DNA of 64,000 nucleotides from the NCBI GenBank assembly GCA_044867785.1, contig JBIOVM010000098.1, forward strand, positions 1,004 to 65,003. The letters are read 5' to 3'. Both the position numbers and the translations under genes were made by a program. A model generated the notes under the pieces. The model did not search any database. It was not told where the DNA came from and saw only the letters and a program-made list of their open reading frames with translations. This document shows, one piece after another, positions 4,145 to 30,575 of this stretch (its first letter is position 1; each line of letters starts with the position of its first letter). The DNA comes from Candidatus Rokuibacteriota bacterium (GTDB lineage Bacteria > Methylomirabilota > Methylomirabilia > Rokubacteriales > DASRDR01).

Positions 4145-4854
4145 CGGACACCGTGGCCGGCGAGGCGAGCGCGCTCTACCTCCGGCAGATGGAGCTCGGG
4201 CCGATGCAGAACTTCGTCTACCTCGTGGGAGACCGCGAGGCGGGCGAGTGCGTCGTCGTCGATCCGGCCTGGGAGATCGACACCATCGTGCGGACGGCCG
4301 AGGCCGACGGGCTCCGCATCACGGGCGCCCTCGTGACGCATACGCACCAGGACCACGTGGGCGGGAGCCTGGCGGACTGGGGCATGCCGGGGCGGATCCC
4401 CGGGGTCGAGGAGCTGCTCGGCCGGGTGCGGGCCAAGGTCTACGTCCATCGGGCCGAGCGCGAGTTCCTACGCGGCTTCGGCTCCGATCTGGTGCAGGTG
4501 GAGAGCGCGACCGAGCTCCCCGTGGGGCGCTTCCCGATCGTGTTCATCCACACGCCCGGTCACACGCCGGGCTCCCAGTGCTTCCTCGTCGACGGGCGGC
4601 TCGTGTCGGGCGACACGCTGTTCATCCAGGCGTGCGGCCGCACGGACCTGCCGGGCGGGGACCCGAGCGAGATGCACCGGAGCCTCACCGAGCGGCTCGG
4701 CCGGCTTCCCGACGACACCGTCCTGCTGCCGGGCCACAACTACGGCGGGCGCCAGTCCACGCTGGGCGTCGAGAAGCGCGAGAACCCGTTCCTTCAGATG
4801 GGCCTCGGCGAGTTCCTCCGCGCGATGGGGGGCGGCCGGATCACGCTGCCATAA
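4141..4854 (+). CDS. MBL-fold metallo-hydrolase (glyoxalase II-like). Alternative start is ATG at 4189.
   Basis: THTHQDHVGG (HxHxDH) metal-binding motif, HTPGHTPGS and LLPGHNY. A GTGA overlap with the upstream stop suggests coupling. Confidence 0.7.
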   Translation: MTDTVAGEASALYLRQMELGPMQNFVYLVGDREAGECVVVDPAWEIDTIVRTAEADGLRITGALVTHTHQDHVGGSLADWGMPGRIPGVEELLGRVRAKVYVHRAEREFLRGFGSDLVQVESATELPVGRFPIVFIHTPGHTPGSQCFLVDGRLVSGDTLFIQACGRTDLPGGDPSEMHRSLTERLGRLPDDTVLLPGHNYGGRQSTLGVEKRENPFLQMGLGEFLRAMGGGRITLP

Positions 4855-4884
4855 CCCTCGCCGGGCCGGCCCGCCGGCCTTCCG

Positions 4885-5727
4885 TCAGAGCCGGTAGCAC
4901 GCGACCGCGTTCAGGCCGAGGACGCGGTCGCGCGCCGCCCGTTCCAGCCCGCCCAGCAAGGCCTCGGCGGCGGCCAGCCACTCCGCATAGCCCGCGCGCA
5001 GGGTCACCACGGGCCAATCGCTCCCGAAGATCATGCGGTCCGGTCCGAAGTGGTGGAGCAGGTGGTCCACGTACGGCCGCAGGCGCTCGACGGACCAGGC
5101 CGGCCCGTCCTCGGTGACCAGGCCCGACAGCTTGACCCAGGCGCGCGTGTCGCGCGCGAGATGCGCCATGTCCTCCGCCCACGCGCCGGAGCGTCCGCCG
5201 GCGATGTCGGGCTTGGCGCCGTGGTCGATCACCACGCGCAGGTCCGGATGGGAGGCGAGGAGGCGCCGTAGATTCGGGAGATGGGCCGGCCGGACCAGCG
5301 CGTCGAAGACCAGATCGTGCGACGCGATCGCCCGAAGCCCCGCGGCGAGCGCGGGCCGGAGCATCCAGTCCAAGTCGGGCACGTCGTGGAGCATGGGCCG
5401 GAGGCCCCGCAGGCGAGGATCGGCGGCGAGCTCGGCCACGACCTCGGCCGCGTCCGGCGCGTCGAGGGGTGCCCAGCCGACGACCCCCGCGACGAACGGG
5501 GCGACGGCCGCCAGCTGGAGCAGGAAGCGCGTCTCCGCCACCGTCGGAGCGGCCTGGACGAGCACGGTCCCGTCGATGCCGGCCCGTGCGAGCAGCGGCG
5601 CGAGATCGGTCGGCTCGAAGTCGCGGTAGATGGGCGCCAGGCCGGGGGTCAGCCAGCCGTAGTCGCCGCGGGCCAGACGCCAGAAGTGCTGGTGCGCGTC
5701 GATACGGCGGGGCCGGTCGGCGGTCAT
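4885..5727 (-). CDS. amidohydrolase-2 family TIM-barrel hydrolase (L-fucono-1,5-lactonase-like)
   Basis: N-terminal IDAHQHFW (HxH metal site) and C-terminal FGSDWP motif typical of the amidohydrolase_2 lactonase/decarboxylase family. Its ATG overlaps the upstream AKR stop (ATGA). Confidence 0.7.
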   Translation of the reverse strand: MTADRPRRIDAHQHFWRLARGDYGWLTPGLAPIYRDFEPTDLAPLLARAGIDGTVLVQAAPTVAETRFLLQLAAVAPFVAGVVGWAPLDAPDAAEVVAELAADPRLRGLRPMLHDVPDLDWMLRPALAAGLRAIASHDLVFDALVRPAHLPNLRRLLASHPDLRVVIDHGAKPDIAGGRSGAWAEDMAHLARDTRAWVKLSGLVTEDGPAWSVERLRPYVDHLLHHFGPDRMIFGSDWPVVTLRAGYAEWLAAAEALLGGLERAARDRVLGLNAVACYRL

Positions 5728-6758
5728 CCGGGCGTGGGCGCGTCGGCGCGAAGGAGCCCTTCGGTCTTCAGATCGCCCCAGAGGGTCGGCGGGATCGGGT
5801 GGCGCAGCAGCCGCAGGTTCGCCTCCACCTCGTCGGGCGATCGCGTCCCGGGGATGACCGCCGCCACGGCCGGATGGTGGAACGGAAACTGCAGCGCCGC
5901 GGCGGCGAGCGGGACGCCGTGGGCGGCGACCACCCGCTCGAGGGTCCCGACCCGGTCGAGCACGGCGGGCGGCGCCGGCTCGTAGTTGTACGTCGTGCCG
6001 GGCCGGGCGCCCGTCGCGAGAATGCCGGAGTTGTACGGTCCGCCCACGATCACGCCGATCCGGCGGCGCTCGCACATCGGCAGGAAGCTGTCGAGCGCGG
6101 TCTGCTCGAGGAGCGAGTACCGTCCGGCCAGGAGGAAGCAGTCGAAATCGCCGTCTCGCGCGCAGCGCTCCAGGATCTGCCACTCGTTGGCGCCCACGCC
6201 GATGGCCCGGATCGTGCCCGCGGCGCGCAGGTCGTGCAGGATCCGGTAGGCGCCCTCCATGGCCTGGGCGTATCGCAGGTCGTCCTCGGCGCCGTGGGTC
6301 ACGGCGCCGAGATCGTGGATCAGGACGACGTCCACGCGGTCGAGCCTGAGCCGCTCGAGGCTGCCGTCGAGCGAGGCCCGCGTGGCCTCGGCCGTGTAGT
6401 CGAACACCGGGGTGAGTGGCGGGATGTCCACGTACGGGCTCCCGCCCCGGGGCGCCTCGGCGGATCGCGGCACGAGACGCCGACCCACCTTCGTCGACAG
6501 AGCGAACGCGTCGCGGGGCTCGCCGTGGAGCGCGGCCCCAATCCGCCGCTCGCTCAAGCCGGACCCGTAGAGCGGCGCGGTGTCGAAGTAGCGGAGCCCC
6601 GCGGTCCACGCGCGGCGCACGGTGGCGGCGGCCTGCGGCTCGTCGAGCGGTCGGAAGAGATTGCCGAGAGGCGCGCCGCCGAACCCGAGTCGCGTGACCT
6701 GCACGGCTGTCCGGCCGAGCGGCCGCCGGTCCCCGGGGTCGATCGGGCGCGTGCTCAC
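5724..6758 (-). CDS. aldo/keto reductase (aldose 1-dehydrogenase-like, e.g. L-fucose dehydrogenase type)
   Basis: AKR fold signatures (LGFGGAPLGN, RYFDTAPLYG, VVLIHD) and a 4-nt overlap with both neighbouring genes. Confidence 0.75.
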   Translation of the reverse strand: MSTRPIDPGDRRPLGRTAVQVTRLGFGGAPLGNLFRPLDEPQAAATVRRAWTAGLRYFDTAPLYGSGLSERRIGAALHGEPRDAFALSTKVGRRLVPRSAEAPRGGSPYVDIPPLTPVFDYTAEATRASLDGSLERLRLDRVDVVLIHDLGAVTHGAEDDLRYAQAMEGAYRILHDLRAAGTIRAIGVGANEWQILERCARDGDFDCFLLAGRYSLLEQTALDSFLPMCERRRIGVIVGGPYNSGILATGARPGTTYNYEPAPPAVLDRVGTLERVVAAHGVPLAAAALQFPFHHPAVAAVIPGTRSPDEVEANLRLLRHPIPPTLWGDLKTEGLLRADAPTPG

Positions 6759-25655: not shown

Positions 25656-27278
25656 TCAGGCCTCGCCGGGCCGAAGCGACTCGAGCGCCGCCGGAGCGGG
25701 CGCCAGTCCCCCCGGGGTCCGCTGTCGCGCGGCGAGGCCGAGCGCGGTGACGAAGATCGCGTCCTGACCGGCGGCCGCCGGTGCGAAGAACTGCACCACG
25801 TCGTCGTCGAAGAAGGTGAGGCCGGACGCCCCGAGGCCCAGGCCGTACGCGCCGAGGTAGAGCCGCCCGCCCAAGAGCCCGGCAGCGAGATTGGCTGCCC
25901 GATAGCCCCGGTTCCCCCATCGCTTCACGATCGCGTCGAGGTCCGAGAGGAAGAACGCGACGGCCGCCGCATCGGCACCCAGTGGCTGTCCGAGGCAGAG
26001 GTGGCCGCCCGCCTCGCGGAACGCCCCGGGCCGCAGCAGGCGCGGCGCCCGAGCGGCCGGATCCCAGACGTACGCGCCGGACGGCCGGCCGTCGACCGCG
26101 TGGATGAGGAGATAGGTTTCAACAAGCCGCGAGGCGCCGGGATCGAGGTCGAGGGGGAGCGGGCGCAGCGCGGCGTCCAGGATCGCGGCGAACGAGGCGC
26201 CGGCGATCGGGTCCCGGCGAAACTCGCGCGTCGACCCTCGGCGGAGGATCGTCTCGCCGAGTGGCCGCGACGCCGGCGGGAGGCCGGGGTCCCTCCCGAA
26301 GGCGTCGGTCGCCGACGGCGCCGCTGGCTCGAGATCGCGGCCGTCCTCGGCGCCTCGCGCGACCCAGGCGCGCGCGGCCGGGCCGTCCGGAAGCGTCGAG
26401 GCTTCGTAGGCTGAGCGCACCAGCGGACAAGGGACCTCGTGGGCCGAGAGCGGCACCCAGCGGGGATCGAGGGGTGGAGCGGCAGGGCTGGGCGGCGCCG
26501 GGCCGGCGCTGCGTCCGAGAGGGACCAGCGCGAGGCTCCCCTCGTGGGCGGGGTCGACACCGACGAGGCCGTTCACCAGGGGGTCGGCGAAGCCGAGGAG
26601 GACCCGGGCGGGGACGTCGATGGCCGTCGCCGTCGCCAGCATCGTCGCGAGGAGCGTGCCCGCATCCCAGAAGAAATGCCGGAACGCCCGGGCTCGATAC
26701 TTCCAGGTGTTGCGCCAGTGGATCGCCGTGAGCACCACGGTGGCGGGTGCGTCGCCGACGAGGTCGCCGCGGCCCGCCGCCGTCGCGAGGGCGGCGCGAT
26801 GGTCGCCCGGACGCAAGAGGCGCAGCGTGAAGTCCCCCGGACAGAAGTGGTACACGCCGGGGGCGAGCCCGTCGACCGCTCCGGCCACGACGTAGACCTC
26901 GGTCTGATAGAGAGCGCCGGTCGATGGCGAGGCCCGGAAGTGCTGGGTCTCCCCGCCCGGGTAAACCCGCCGCTTCGTCAGTCCCGCGGAGAAGAAGAGC
27001 AGCTGCGCCAGGGCGAGCACGTCCACCGGGCTCCGGCCAGGGCGAGCGACGCCGCGTGCCACCGCCTCCAGCACGGGGAGCGACGGCGGCGGCAGCTCGC
27101 GCGGCAGGGGCCGGGCCGGCGCGTCGGGGTACACCTTGAACAGGAAGGGCTTGTTTCCCCAGTCGAGCACGTGCGGGTCCGCCCGGACGCTGGCCCACGA
27201 GTGCTTCGTCGAGTCGTGGTAGGCCCGGGCGTCGCCCGGACCGGCGGCGGGTGTGAGCGGTGCGGCCGGGCCGGTCAC
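25656..27278 (-). CDS. SagB/ThcOx-type dehydrogenase (tandem nitroreductase-like domains)
   Basis: N-terminal YHDSTKH motif and a second-domain nitroreductase FMN motif RRGSTREF; 540 aa, a two-domain architecture like ThcOx/SagB-family proteins. Confidence 0.55.
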   Translation of the reverse strand: MTGPAAPLTPAAGPGDARAYHDSTKHSWASVRADPHVLDWGNKPFLFKVYPDAPARPLPRELPPPSLPVLEAVARGVARPGRSPVDVLALAQLLFFSAGLTKRRVYPGGETQHFRASPSTGALYQTEVYVVAGAVDGLAPGVYHFCPGDFTLRLLRPGDHRAALATAAGRGDLVGDAPATVVLTAIHWRNTWKYRARAFRHFFWDAGTLLATMLATATAIDVPARVLLGFADPLVNGLVGVDPAHEGSLALVPLGRSAGPAPPSPAAPPLDPRWVPLSAHEVPCPLVRSAYEASTLPDGPAARAWVARGAEDGRDLEPAAPSATDAFGRDPGLPPASRPLGETILRRGSTREFRRDPIAGASFAAILDAALRPLPLDLDPGASRLVETYLLIHAVDGRPSGAYVWDPAARAPRLLRPGAFREAGGHLCLGQPLGADAAAVAFFLSDLDAIVKRWGNRGYRAANLAAGLLGGRLYLGAYGLGLGASGLTFFDDDVVQFFAPAAAGQDAIFVTALGLAARQRTPGGLAPAPAALESLRPGEA

Positions 27279-27547
27279 CTGCGGCGCCGCGGGCGCGGCG
27301 TCGCGGCGCCGTCGCCCCGCGGGCGCGGACGCGCGGCGGCCGCCGCCGCGCGCGAGGTCTCGTTGAAGGCCGTGGCGTCGCGGTCGACCTTGCCGCCGAC
27401 GGCCGTGCCACAGTCCTGACAGACGTAGTCGTACTGGTTGCCGGTCGGCAAGACCAGGAGCAGCTTCTTGCGGACCGCCACCGCGCGGCGGCAGCGCGGA
27501 CAGAAGAGGCTCTGCGCCTCGAACTCGCGGAAGGAGGACTCGGTCAT
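27275..27547 (-). CDS. small zinc-ribbon protein translationally coupled to the SagB-like gene
   Basis: 90 aa with CPRC...(21 aa)...CQDC. Its stop overlaps the SagB-like start by 4 nt. Confidence 0.4.
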   Translation of the reverse strand: MTESSFREFEAQSLFCPRCRRAVAVRKKLLLVLPTGNQYDYVCQDCGTAVGGKVDRDATAFNETSRAAAAAARPRPRGDGAATPRPRRRR

Positions 27548-27594
27548 GCGCGTTCCATTCTAGCGCGGGTCGCCCGGCCGGCCCGCACGCGCCG

Positions 27595-28654: not shown

Positions 28655-29209
28655 TCAGAAGGCCCGGCCTCCCATGAATCGGACGACCACCAGGCCGAAG
28701 ACGAGCAGCCCCACGGCCGCCGCCACGAGCGTGCGCCAGTTCCCGAACCCTCCGGCTTGCTTCGGCGACGCCTCCCGCCGGGGCCGGCGTTCGGGCAGCA
28801 GCATCTGGGCGGTCGTCGCGGGGGCGAGCCGCAGCAGCGCGGGGTTGACCCCGAGGCCTTCGATGCCCTGACGGGCCACATCCGCCTCCCCCGACGTGAG
28901 CGCCAGGAACGTGAGGAAGGTCCCGTGCTGGAGCTCGTGTTGGACTTCGACCAGCTCGTAGGCCGGCGCCCTGTCGACGACCCAGCGCGCCACGCGGTAC
29001 CGCAGCCGCTCGTCGACCAGGGGCCCGAAGGAGAGCGCATACGCCTGCTTGGTTCCCGGCGATGCCACCGCCGGCTCCGCGGAGGGCAGGTGCGCCCCGC
29101 CGGCGCCGTTGCTGCTCTCCGGGCTCGGCTTCGGCGCGAGCCGGGCGCCGCATGCCAGGCAGAACGCGCTCCGGTCGGGAACCTCCGCCTGGCAGCTCGG
29201 ACAGGTCAC
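28655..29209 (-). CDS. zinc-ribbon domain membrane protein. Alternative start is ATG at 29248, which overlaps the aminotransferase gene.
   Basis: N-terminal CPSCQAEVPDRSAFCLACGARL ribbon and a C-terminal TM helix LVAAAVGLLVFGLVVV. Confidence 0.35.
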   Translation of the reverse strand: MTCPSCQAEVPDRSAFCLACGARLAPKPSPESSNGAGGAHLPSAEPAVASPGTKQAYALSFGPLVDERLRYRVARWVVDRAPAYELVEVQHELQHGTFLTFLALTSGEADVARQGIEGLGVNPALLRLAPATTAQMLLPERRPRREASPKQAGGFGNWRTLVAAAVGLLVFGLVVVRFMGGRAF

Positions 29210-29228
29210 CTCGGGCCCTCGGGCGCGG

Positions 29229-30575
29229 CTAGAGCCGCGCCTCGACACCGCCGATCGCGGCGTCCAGGATCGACACGATCTCGTCCGCCTGCGCGCGGGT
29301 GAGGATGAGCGGGGGAGTCAGCTTGATGTGATCGCCCATGACGCCGTCCACCGAGCCCGTGCCGGGGTAGGTCACGAGCCCGCGCGGGAGGGCCTCGAGC
29401 GCCACGGCGCGAGCCACCTCGCGCTCCGGGGGAAACGGCGCCCGCGTGCCGCGGTCGGCCACGAACTCGAGCCCGACCATCATGCCGAGGCCGCGCACGT
29501 CCCCGACGATGGGATGGCGCGCCATCAGGCCGCGCAGCCCGGCCAGCAAGTGCGTGCCGACCTCGCGGGCGTTGCGCACCAGGTCGTGCTCCTGGATGTA
29601 CCGGAGGACGGCCAGGCCGACGGCGGCGGCGACGGGATGGCCGGTGTAGGTGTGGCCGCCCACGAAGTTCGAGTTGTTGCGCTCGAAGGCTTGGATCAGC
29701 TCGTCCCGAACGATGACTGCGCCGAGCGGGATGTAGCCGCCGGAAACGCCCTTGGCGGTGGCGATCAAGTCGGGGATCACTCCCCAGTGATCTACCGCGA
29801 AGTTCGCCCCGGTCCGGCCGAAGCCGGTCATCACCTCGTCGGCGATGAACAGCACCTCGTAGCGATCGCAAATCTCGCGGATCTTCGGGAAGTATTCCGG
29901 GACGGGCGGAACCGCCCCCAGCGTCGCGCCGACCACCGGCTCGGCGATGAACGCCGCCACGTTCTCCGGTCCCTGCATCCGCAAGAGTCGCTCCAGGTAG
30001 TCGGCGCAGTATGTGTCGCAGGCGGGGTAGGTTTGCCGGAAGTGGCAGCGGTAGCAGTACATCGGCGGCAGGTGGCTCGCCTCGTTGAACATCGGGACGT
30101 ACTTGCGGCGGCGGATCGTGTGCCCGCCGAACGCCATCGAGCCCAGGGTATTGCCGTGGAAGGACTGCCAGCGCCCGACCACGATGGACTTCGAAGGCTT
30201 GCCGCGCTCGAGCCAGTACTGGCGGGCGAGCTTGGCGGCGTTCTCGGTCGCTTCCGACCCGCCCGACACGAACCACACGCGATTCAGGTCTCCGGGGGCG
30301 AACTTGGCGACGGCCTCGGCCAGGGCCTCGAGGGGCTCGCTCGTGAAGAGGTGCATCGGCACGAACGCCACCTTGCGGGCCTGCGCCGCCATCGCGTCGG
30401 CGATCTCCGGGACCCCGTGGCCGATGGACGTCACGGCGGACGAGCCGCCCGAGCCGTCGATGTAGCGCCGGCCCTCGGCGTCCCAGAGGTAGACGCCCTC
30501 GCCGCGGACGATCGTCGGATAGGCGCGTCCGAGGTCGCGGTAGAGCACGCTCGACTGGATGAGGGATCGCGTCAT
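29229..30575 (-). CDS. class III (omega) aminotransferase, PLP-dependent
   Basis: DEVMTGFGRTG motif and PLP-lysine region ATAKGVSGGYIPLGA; 448 aa. Confidence 0.8.
   Translation of the reverse strand: MTRSLIQSSVLYRDLGRAYPTIVRGEGVYLWDAEGRRYIDGSGGSSAVTSIGHGVPEIADAMAAQARKVAFVPMHLFTSEPLEALAEAVAKFAPGDLNRVWFVSGGSEATENAAKLARQYWLERGKPSKSIVVGRWQSFHGNTLGSMAFGGHTIRRRKYVPMFNEASHLPPMYCYRCHFRQTYPACDTYCADYLERLLRMQGPENVAAFIAEPVVGATLGAVPPVPEYFPKIREICDRYEVLFIADEVMTGFGRTGANFAVDHWGVIPDLIATAKGVSGGYIPLGAVIVRDELIQAFERNNSNFVGGHTYTGHPVAAAVGLAVLRYIQEHDLVRNAREVGTHLLAGLRGLMARHPIVGDVRGLGMMVGLEFVADRGTRAPFPPEREVARAVALEALPRGLVTYPGTGSVDGVMGDHIKLTPPLILTRAQADEIVSILDAAIGGVEARL

Follow-up and report, generated by a model that had tools for sequence, protein, structure and literature searches.

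An orphan tandem SagB-family protein and a small zinc-ribbon protein encoded side by side in one sub-clade of Rokubacteria

Introduction

The 64,000-nt window considered here, that is, the whole stretch of Candidatus Rokuibacteriota DNA that was analysed, contains on its minus strand a small gene with two CxxC motifs, followed directly by a gene of the SagB dehydrogenase family. Does this locus represent a cryptic thiazole/oxazole peptide cluster, an enzyme with a dedicated zinc-ribbon partner, or two independent families that have come to lie in one unit? The original prediction, which was made from the sequence, described an orphan SagB/ThcOx-type dehydrogenase whose small neighbor might serve as a redox partner, a substrate carrier or, less likely, a precursor peptide. 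We examined the two proteins, their junction and their distribution, and we favor the third reading, in which enzyme and small protein are expressed together but the latter is probably not an obligate partner of the former.

The Two Genes and Their Junction

Both ORFs lie on the minus strand exactly where the original prediction had placed them (Table 1), together with every motif that it had quoted: Y20-H21-D-S-T24-K25-H26 and R346-R347-G-S-T-R351-E-F in the large protein, and C16-P-R-C19 and C43-Q-D-C46 in the small one. Both are genuine genes rather than open frames that arise by chance in DNA with 72–75% GC. Homologues of the large protein number more than 4,400; for the small one, a search with the single sequence gave 270 and a profile search 2,179. 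In frame, the GC3 of the small ORF is 0.95. Its synonymous codon differences outnumber amino-acid-changing ones by 1.44 to 1, and it is under purifying selection, also at loci that lack SagB.

Table 1. Features of the two-gene unit, with positions in the window.
Feature	Position	Strand	Basis or remark
540-aa tandem (pseudodimeric) SagB-family nitroreductase-fold protein, 3EO7 type	25656..27278	-	TIGR03605, PF00881, 3EO7, AF2
Domain 1, SagB-type, residues ~15-256	26511..27236	-	Best TIGR03605 stretch; ThcOx and McbC align here
Y20-H-D-S-T-K-H-S27 motif	27198..27221	-	Occupies the place of the Arg-rich FMN-phosphate motif in domain 2
W192-K193-Y194	26697..26705	-	Invariant in 55/55; aligned to WKY of ThcOx (FWKY)
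Inter-domain linker, residues ~257-339	26262..26510	-	Pro/Ala-rich, partly low-confidence (AF2), conserved PLSxxE...AS segment
Domain 2, nitroreductase, residues ~340-518	25725..26261	-	PF00881 over 344-498; BmdC aligns here
R346-R347-G-S349-T-R351, FMN-phosphate/isoalloxazine motif	26226..26243	-	Equivalent to BmdC Arg145, Arg146, Ser147, Arg149 (PMC8795117)
GTGA junction	27275..27278	-	TGA of the small ORF and GTG of the SagB-type gene share these 4 nt
Small C4 zinc-ribbon protein (predicted metal site), 90 aa, first cistron of the unit	27275..27547	-	ORF, homologues, AF2 model
First zinc knuckle C16-P-R-C19	27491..27502	-	C16, C19 invariant
Second zinc knuckle C43-Q-D-C46, then G47	27410..27421	-	C43, C46 invariant
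Conserved -10-like box GCTAGAAT	27557..27564	-	9 nt upstream of the small-ORF ATG; conservation

The predicted 4-nt overlap between the stop of the small ORF and the start of the large one is present as a GTGA junction. Its GTG is the sole start available to the SagB-type gene, as no other in-frame start codon occurs from the upstream stop to the point where conserved residues begin. Of 13 paired loci that could be read, 11 keep an overlap of 4 nt or 1 nt. Translational coupling from the small ORF to the SagB-type gene is probable. In compact genomes of high GC content such as these, a 4-nt start/stop overlap is weak evidence for a partnership: in related lineages, three different genes take the upstream place in the coupling with this one enzyme gene. 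Overlaps of this length are also frequent between unrelated neighboring genes in related genomes (e.g., 626/629 and 1582/1585 in L003).

Directly upstream of the small ORF, the box GCTA[C/G]AAT is found in 12 of 13 loci within intergenic sequence that has otherwise diverged. This box may well be the promoter of the unit, which would yield a leaderless or near-leaderless mRNA. A two-hexamer sigma-70 scan found no full -35/-10 pair, so it is the conservation of the box that points to promoter function. A terminator scan gave two terminator-like matches, both inside the SagB coding region and at chance level, and an Rfam search of the whole window returned no RNA family. The cyclase gene further upstream was considered as a member of the unit and was rejected because the box separates it from the small ORF, a gene on the opposite strand intervenes in L001, and L085 and L171 have other genes in its place.

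The Large Tandem SagB-Family Protein

The large protein scores 147.3 bits with TIGR03605, well above the cutoff of 78.4, in two stretches of which the best covers residues 89-256. Its proposed membership in the SagB family is thus borne out by the family model and is not a matter of generic nitroreductase matches alone. A phmmer search against PDB entry 3EO7 gave an E-value of 1.6e-52 with two aligned domains (residues 16-255 and 343-514). With the AF2 model (pTM 0.81), Foldseek returned 3EO7 as the only full-length structural match (E 4.8e-33, 535 columns, target-normalised TM 0.75, 29% identity). The protein has two nitroreductase-like domains in one chain, the YHxxT motif and full-length homology to 3EO7, and it belongs to a 3EO7-type family that occurs in at least 586 GTDB species. 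The original prediction had correctly seen two domains, but both are nitroreductase-like and arranged in tandem, and the suggested likeness to the ThcOx architecture does not hold, as ThcOx, McbC and BmdC each align to one domain only.

Conservation over 55 orthologues assigns different motifs to the two halves. Domain 1 carries YHxxTxHS, FRAxxSTGALYxxExY and W192-K193-Y194, the last of which matches the Lys-Tyr pair of azoline dehydrogenases. Melby and colleagues are said to have described, in 2014, a catalytic role for Lys-Tyr in TOMM dehydrogenases. In the N-terminal motif, Y20, T24 and H26 are invariant and S27 is kept in 52 of 55 sequences. The YHxxTKH form put forward originally is present in this protein, but a lysine at K25 is shared by only 22 of 55 orthologues, and the family consensus is better written as YHxxTxHS; YHxxTK also aligns in 3EO7. 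Domain 2 has the canonical FMN-phosphate motif (R347 in 54/55, S349 in 54/55 and R351 in 55/55) and R457-G458-Y459. The Lys-Tyr pair and the FMN-binding Arg motif that mark azoline dehydrogenases are therefore both present, but in different domains of the tandem, and FMN binding is predicted. The complementarity of the invariant motifs in the two halves is in favor of the explanation preferred below.

The Small Zinc-Ribbon Protein

Residues ~8-58 of the small protein form a conserved core, which is followed by a helix (59-72) and by an Ala/Pro/Arg tail that is basic and variable; the pI is 10.5 for the whole protein and 12 for the tail. All of 59 close and 25 distant homologues keep the four cysteines C16, C19, C43 and C46, and the AF2 model (pLDDT 77) has four beta-strands (13-16, 21-33, 36-43 and 49-55) followed by the helix. 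With two invariant CxxC knuckles on a beta-ribbon fold, the protein is modeled as a C4 zinc ribbon with a predicted metal site, in agreement with the four-Cys ribbon proposed originally. Its family shares the strongly conserved signature EFEAxxLFCxxCxxAxPVRKxLLLVLPxGxKYxYxCxxCGxxVGxK and comprises at least 374 clusters at 50% identity.

This widespread family is recognised by no curated model. When the small protein and 25 distant relatives were scanned with Pfam, NCBIfam and PADLOC, all matches were to generic zinc ribbons and below threshold, and none of the generic C4 ribbons (Zn_ribbon_8/FmdB type, DUF8106, ribosomal L44e/eL42, NrdR and TFIIB) reaches its curated cutoff on the small protein. 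DUF8106 (PF26408) has only "weak" or "faint" precomputed matches on some homologues and is absent from hmmscan even at E <= 10. The small protein matches neither the model nor the fold of rubredoxin, a possible Fe-Cys4 redox partner. PADLOC found no anti-phage system match for either protein of the pair or for two distant small homologues, and among 150 family representatives the small domain is nowhere naturally fused to SagB or another informative domain. A candidate tandem paralogue of the small ORF at distant loci was discarded, as it is the antisense shadow of a divergent epimerase gene.

One further reading of the unit is that the small ORF is an upstream cistron that sets the translation of SagB, its product being irrelevant to the enzyme. 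The conserved -10-like box with its very short leader would fit such a device, as would the sole SagB start inside the stop overlap with no spaced Shine-Dalgarno sequence and a downstream cargo that varies among ACT, SagB, SRPBCC and molybdoenzyme genes. However, the small protein is strongly conserved in its amino acids and is a stand-alone gene in many phyla, and it must therefore have a function of its own; we regard this reading as improbable. It overlaps with the explanation that we prefer and is not a true alternative to it.

The Question of a RiPP System

If the locus were a RiPP-like system, the 90-aa protein would be a precursor or scaffold peptide modified by the SagB-type dehydrogenase. 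The enzyme does pass the SagB-family HMM and has the Lys-Tyr pair in domain 1, and a small ORF immediately upstream occupies the usual place of a precursor gene. However, the genes needed for azoline formation are missing. On a syntenic contig with a SagB copy of 93% identity, the annotation within 10 kb of that copy lists no YcaO, E1-like or cyclodehydratase gene, and no YcaO, E1-like or Ocin-ThiF Pfam family occurs in the neighborhoods L001-L004, L085 and L170-L172. The orphan status of the dehydrogenase, as originally described, is supported over the 10 kb of that contig.

The two proteins themselves also argue against a RiPP system. What is conserved in the small protein folds as a zinc ribbon and is not a Cys/Ser/Thr-rich precursor, and the variable tail (residues 59-90) contains no Cys, one Ser and three Thr; the doubt that the original prediction expressed about a precursor role was justified. 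RRE and peptide-clamp domains are absent from the enzyme. The enzyme family is widespread in housekeeping contexts, and the small family is widespread without SagB. Taken together, modification of the small protein by a RiPP-like system is highly improbable, and a role for it as a RiPP precursor is very unlikely.

Distribution of the Pair

The pair is restricted to about 20 loci in one sub-clade of Methylomirabilota (Rokubacteria), in which SagB identity ranges from 56 to 93% and the start/stop overlap is nearly always kept. Conservation of the small ORF with the large protein in other genomes, which the original prediction had made a test of the pairing, was not found beyond this sub-clade: 65 of 80 genome loci with a SagB orthologue have no homologue of the small ORF within 6 kb. 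These loci belong to other Methylomirabilota, Terriglobia, Binatia and Dehalococcoidia, and the SagB gene of L002 likewise has no small ORF. In a sister clade, 11 of 24 loci have a 4-nt overlap between the stop of mtnA and the SagB start. At three loci (L011, L014 and L171), an ACT-pair gene lies between the small ORF and SagB and supplies the overlap.

The reverse situation also occurs. Two lineages (L087-L089 and the contig of P0230) have the same synteny and keep the small ORF, with SagB missing from the locus and no remnant of it; the small protein of L087-L089 (P0208) is present on at least 60 contigs. The small gene is also unpaired with SagB in L173 and L174. Near distant homologues of the small protein, SagB was found at none of 80 metagenome loci, of which 55 had at least 600 nt of downstream sequence; recurring neighbors there were genes for methylmalonyl-CoA epimerase, an FG-GAP protein, a MobA-like protein and a Memo-like protein. 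The pairing is clade-restricted and dispensable both ways. Because either gene is found alone in most other genomes, the operon is a local arrangement, not a new system for peptide antibiotics.

Against this distribution stands the possibility of a dedicated partnership within this lineage, in which the zinc ribbon would be a subunit of the pseudodimeric SagB enzyme, acting as a Cys4-metal electron relay or as an adaptor or targeting subunit. The pair is translationally coupled, as far as can be judged, across about 20 loci over which SagB identity falls from 93% to 56%, and such coupling favors equimolar amounts of the two products. Four cysteines of the small protein are invariant, and the FMN enzyme is without a fused electron-transfer or substrate-recognition domain. 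As an electron relay, the small protein would re-oxidise FMNH2; as an adaptor, it would bring a substrate, nucleic-acid or protein target to the enzyme. We consider a dedicated partnership rather unlikely.

Discussion

The explanation that we consider the most plausible, with moderate confidence, is that two independent families were brought into one translationally coupled two-gene unit in a single sub-clade. The first gene encodes a small, basic C4 zinc ribbon of a widespread stand-alone family; as it lies directly behind the conserved -10-like box, its translation is probably leaderless or near-leaderless. The second encodes a protein of the 3EO7 family in which two SagB-type domains of the nitroreductase fold form a pseudodimer within one chain. 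Because its sole start lies in the stop of the first gene and no well-spaced Shine-Dalgarno sequence is present, its translation probably depends on ribosomes ending on the first gene.

Within the enzyme, one canonical FMN site is most likely, formed by the RRGSTR motif and Tyr459 of domain 2, and the invariant STGALY and WKY of domain 1 may complete or line the FMN pocket across the pseudodimer interface. We suggest that the protein is a dehydrogenase or an oxidase that depends on FMN, and that its substrate is a small molecule or another non-RiPP compound. The small protein would be co-expressed with it, yet be neither an obligate partner nor a substrate or precursor, and the two are presumably not in physical partnership. 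It should be noted that the pair is kept over substantial divergence and nearly always overlaps, a pattern that a real functional partnership would also give.

For genome mining, the outcome is that a false lead has been removed: the locus is not a cryptic thiazole/oxazole peptide cluster. Matches to the SagB model include a large and phylogenetically broad group of free-standing tandem 3EO7-type proteins in housekeeping contexts, and genome miners should not take these as RiPP markers. If the partnership should be true, the pair would be the first experimental handle both on the 3EO7-type orphan SagB proteins, which are elsewhere coupled to mtnA, and on the zinc-ribbon family, and co-expression of the two genes would be the easiest route to the function of both families.

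Comparison With Known Flavoenzymes

The azoline dehydrogenases SagB, McbC, ThcOx/PatG-ox and BmdC share with the large protein the TIGR03605 family, the FMN-phosphate motif, an active-site Tyr and the nitroreductase fold, with the Lys-Tyr pair located in domain 1 of the large protein. SagB, McbC, ThcOx and BmdC are homodimers of a single oxidase domain, whereas the large protein is a tandem pseudodimer. ThcOx consists of two peptide-clamp (RRE) domains and one dimerising oxidase domain (PMC5108345). In contrast, the N-terminal half of the large protein is itself a SagB-type domain, and ThcOx aligns with it over only ~260 columns, that is, one domain. ThcOx and BmdC are fused to RRE or peptide-clamp domains and the Mcb enzyme is assembled with a cyclodehydratase (McbBCD), whereas the large protein is without an RRE. 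The genes of azoline dehydrogenases adjoin YcaO and E1-like genes and a Cys/Ser/Thr-rich precursor, or an NRPS, whereas the large gene lies in housekeeping-type neighborhoods.

Two oxidase halves in one polypeptide are also known from the pseudodimeric Ox domain of the indigoidine synthetase IndC (PMC8795117). The Ox domain of IndC is inserted in an NRPS adenylation domain, whereas the large protein is free-standing, and the two are likened here by description and not by sequence.

Literature searches on the function of orphan tandem or 3EO7-type SagB proteins, on a combination of SagB and a zinc ribbon, and on DUF8106 yielded only uses of 3EO7 as a molecular-replacement or comparison model. 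This structure, of Ava_2154 from Anabaena variabilis, is an unpublished JCSG entry described as a "putative nitroreductase"; it is cyanobacterial and only 29% identical, with no small zinc-ribbon partner reported, and it is a full-length homologue of the large protein.

Gene prediction and the gene junction

The GC content of the window is 70–75%, and at this composition chance alone yields long ORFs in all frames; despite this, the ORFs encoding the 540-aa SagB-type protein and the 90-aa zinc-ribbon protein are both real genes. More than 4,400 homologues of the former exist. For the latter, single-sequence and profile searches retrieved 270 and 2,179 homologues, respectively, with four invariant cysteines and a strongly conserved core of about 55 residues. 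The small ORF has a GC3 of 0.95 in its own frame, and its synonymous and amino-acid-changing codon differences stand at 1.44 to 1 (19 loci). The small ORF ends in ...CGC AGG TGA and SagB begins with GTG; the shared GTGA is the 4-nt overlap named in the original prediction, all of whose quoted motifs were found in the sequence. SagB has no alternative in-frame start codon upstream of the first conserved residues.

Features of the window and of comparison loci (L numbers, genome or metagenome loci carrying either gene; P0230, a homologue of the small protein)
Feature	Location	Strand	Remarks
SagB-type 540-aa ORF	window 25656-27278	-	TIGR03605 and Pfam Nitroreductase matches
Small C4 zinc-ribbon 90-aa ORF	window 27275-27547	-	invariant Cys, GC3, codon differences
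Conserved -10-like box GCTA[C/G]AAT	window 27557-27564	-	equivalent position in L003-L014, L051
Putative cyclase (PF04199)	window 27595-~28600	-	weak twin-arginine signal; synteny conserved upstream
Zn_Ribbon_1 protein	window 28655-29248	-	N-terminal CxxC...CxxC, hydrophobic C-terminus; synteny conserved
ACT-pair gene	L011:5574-5965; L014:~5570-5962; L171:3781-4173		PF01842, PF19571; ~130 aa
Frameshifted or fragmented small ORF or SagB	L004:5730-6476; L170:3802-5339; L051		some long-contig assemblies
SagB directly after mtnA in housekeeping block (example)	L017:4685-7524		sister clade
SRPBCC/Polyketide_cyc2 gene	L085:5879-6511; L171:5786-6448; L172:5359-6009		directly after SagB
SRPBCC/Polyketide_cyc2 gene	P0230 contig 4409-5086		directly behind small ORF
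Neighbors of distant small-protein homologues (examples)	L150:611-1252; L108:5350-7029	-	
Memo-like gene (example)	L129:504-1868		near distant small-protein homologue

The small-protein family

The small protein is a C4 zinc ribbon whose family is undescribed yet widespread. It had no significant match among Pfam, NCBIfam and PADLOC models, and some of its homologues carry weak precomputed matches to DUF8106. The family comprises 374 clusters (50% identity, E ≤ 1e-3) with the signature EFEAxxLFCxxCxxAxPVRKxLLLVLPxGxKYxYxCxxCGxxVGxK; its members come from DNA of 38–61% GC, and its range extends far beyond Rokubacteria, the Methylomirabilota group of the source organism. A weak NCBIfam match (TIGR04337, E 0.005, far short of the cutoff) pairs residues 8–64 with ~55 residues at the C-terminal end of the radical-SAM enzyme AmmeMemoRadiSam. 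Independently, 12 loci of distant homologues have a Memo-like gene nearby. Perhaps this is coincidence, perhaps a sign that the ribbon is related to that enzyme's C-terminal module. The Zn_Ribbon_1 protein of the window is unrelated to the small protein.

Pairing within one sub-clade

Every locus whose SagB shares at least ~56% identity with the window copy has the small ORF a short way upstream (L001, L003–L014, L051, L085/086 and L170–L172), in most cases with stop and start overlapping as GTGA or TGATG. In 12 of 13 loci the small ORF is directly preceded by a GCTA[C/G]AAT box, which lies 6–10 nt from the ATG in most and 20–26 nt in some; a generic promoter scan did not detect it. Because of this conserved box, and because L001 has a gene on the other strand between the cyclase and the pair, the two genes appear to form a separate transcription unit, in which the small ORF comes first and has little or no leader.

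Three loci (L011, L014 and L171) carry an ACT-pair gene between the small ORF and SagB, and the stop that overlaps the SagB start, as in L011, is then that of the ACT gene and not of the small ORF. The inserted gene suggests possible regulation of the unit in those lineages by a small, amino-acid-type ligand. The small-ORF or SagB copies that appear frameshifted or fragmented in some long-contig assemblies (L004, L170, L051) probably reflect assembly indel errors rather than pseudogenes; a near-identical contig, L003, is intact.

Failure of the pairing elsewhere

Outside this sub-clade the pairing fails in both directions. The expectation that the small ORF would be conserved with SagB did not hold for most other genomes: 65 of 80 genome loci with a SagB orthologue lack any homologue of the small ORF within 6 kb. 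Conversely, L087–L089 and the P0230 contig keep Aminotran_3, Zn_Ribbon_1, cyclase, an intact small ORF and HAD, with neither SagB nor a SagB remnant at the syntenic locus; the small protein of L087–L089 (P0208) occurs on at least 60 contigs. L173 and L174, the small-protein branch next in similarity (core 73–79% identical), are likewise unpaired, and SagB was within reach of none of the distant homologues at 80 metagenome loci (L090–L169), 55 of which extend 600 nt or more downstream. Recurrent neighbors at these loci are a methylmalonyl-CoA epimerase (50 loci; TIGR03081 at 168 bits), whose gene and that of the small protein are typically transcribed divergently, an FG-GAP-repeat protein (38, its gene coming after the homologue), MobA-like (21) and Memo-like (12) proteins. 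Genes behind the small ORF also vary, among them SRPBCC/Polyketide_cyc2, a small molybdoenzyme or a glycosyltransferase, and 4-nt overlaps also occur between unrelated adjacent genes of these genomes.

The best-supported reading, and a reasonably probable one, is a lineage-specific operon joining two independent families. The constant element would be the small zinc-ribbon gene with its promoter, the SagB-type gene would be one among several downstream genes, and SagB translation would re-initiate at the small-ORF stop codon. A purely expression-level role of the small ORF, which overlaps with this reading, seems improbable. The stable retention of the pair across the sub-clade leaves some room for a genuine SagB/small-protein partnership in this lineage, which we regard as unlikely.

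Genomic neighborhood and distribution of SagB

The best database match to the large protein (93% identical) sits on a contig syntenic with the window. Genes within 10 kb there encode glycosyltransferases, a GDSL lipase, a class-III aminotransferase, a Zn_Ribbon_1 membrane protein, a putative cyclase, a HAD hydrolase, a D-Ala-D-Ala carboxypeptidase and others. YcaO, E1-like and cyclodehydratase genes are absent from this interval, in agreement with the predicted orphan status. That the two genes are a RiPP precursor and its enzyme is very improbable. In the window, the longest cyclase ORF call (481 aa) starts too far upstream, relatives having 317–354 aa, and across all 64 kb no Rfam family attained its gathering score.

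When one genome per GTDB species was scanned by pattern, at least 586 loci of the large protein's family were confirmed, with Methylomirabilota, Terriglobia and other Acidobacteriota, Binatia and Dehalococcoidia among the matches listed. In a sister Methylomirabilota clade (31 loci among L015–L084), SagB lies in a housekeeping block ordered yfiH, yggS, proC, yggT, divIVA, mtnA, SagB and class-V aminotransferase. The gene ahead of SagB there is a bona fide mtnA (S-methyl-5-thioribose-1-phosphate isomerase; TIGR00512, 439 bits vs. 279), and at 11 of 24 loci there is a 4-nt overlap between its stop and the start of SagB; a link to methionine salvage or sulfur metabolism is possible. In L085, L171 and L172 of the paired clade, an SRPBCC/Polyketide_cyc2 gene directly follows SagB, overlapping its stop in L171 and L172, and the next gene is often a small sulfite-oxidase/MsrP-like molybdoenzyme (Oxidored_molyb, 205 aa); the window has neither. 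These neighbors point to small-molecule metabolism, as only a hint.

Architecture of the large protein and comparison with known systems

The 540-aa protein scored 147.3 bits against TIGR03605 (NCBIfam "SagB family peptide dehydrogenase"; cutoff 78.4) in two stretches, which bears out the predicted family, and Pfam Nitroreductase matches its C-terminal half. PDB 3EO7, a 511-aa "putative nitroreductase" of Anabaena (Ava_2154) with known structure but not function, aligns with residues 16–255 and 343–514 (E 1.6e-52), including the N-terminal YHxxTK motif. In a Foldseek search with the AF2 model (pTM 0.81), 3EO7 was the sole full-length match (E 4.8e-33, TM 0.75 normalized to target), and ThcOx, McbC, BmdC and ordinary nitroreductases each covered one domain, which indicates a single-chain pseudodimer. 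The protein thus belongs to the SagB HMM family and the 3EO7 group.

Across 55 orthologues, domain 2 conserves R347, S349 and R351, whose BmdC equivalents hold the FMN phosphate and N1/O2 (PMC8795117), and also has R457-G458-Y459 at the position of the proposed general-base Tyr. Domain 1 carries FRAxxSTGALYxxExY and an invariant W192-K193-Y194 aligning with WKY of ThcOx, and has YHxxTxHS where domain 2 has its Arg-rich motif; the predicted YHxxTKH is present in the window protein, but its Lys is not conserved among the orthologues. These complementary invariant elements suggest that one FMN site is canonical and the other remodelled. Under the operon reading, the enzyme would be a 3EO7-family FMN dehydrogenase or oxidase, free-standing and pseudodimeric, that acts on a non-RiPP substrate.

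The observation behind the original prediction was therefore borne out and its interpretation only in part: the family assignment stands, the ThcOx layout does not, and the pairing is conserved within one sub-clade. The finding serves mainly as a caution, both for RiPP genome mining and against taking 4-nt overlaps as evidence of partnership; with low probability, the pair could also open a way into the function of two orphan families. A TOMM, cyanobactin or ThcOx-type azoline oxidase system was rejected, the large protein having failed system-level tests. ThcOx has two peptide-clamp (RRE) domains followed by a single homodimerizing FMN oxidase domain (PMC5108345), and BmdC one RRE-like and one oxidase domain (PMC8795117); the ThcOx architecture is ruled out here, since the N-terminal half is, like the C-terminal one, itself nitroreductase-like, in a 3EO7-type tandem. 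The single-chain pseudodimer is common to this protein and the IndC Ox insertion, for which such an arrangement has been described (PMC8795117). Nothing in the pair is categorically new: these are known kinds of protein in a lineage-specific arrangement.
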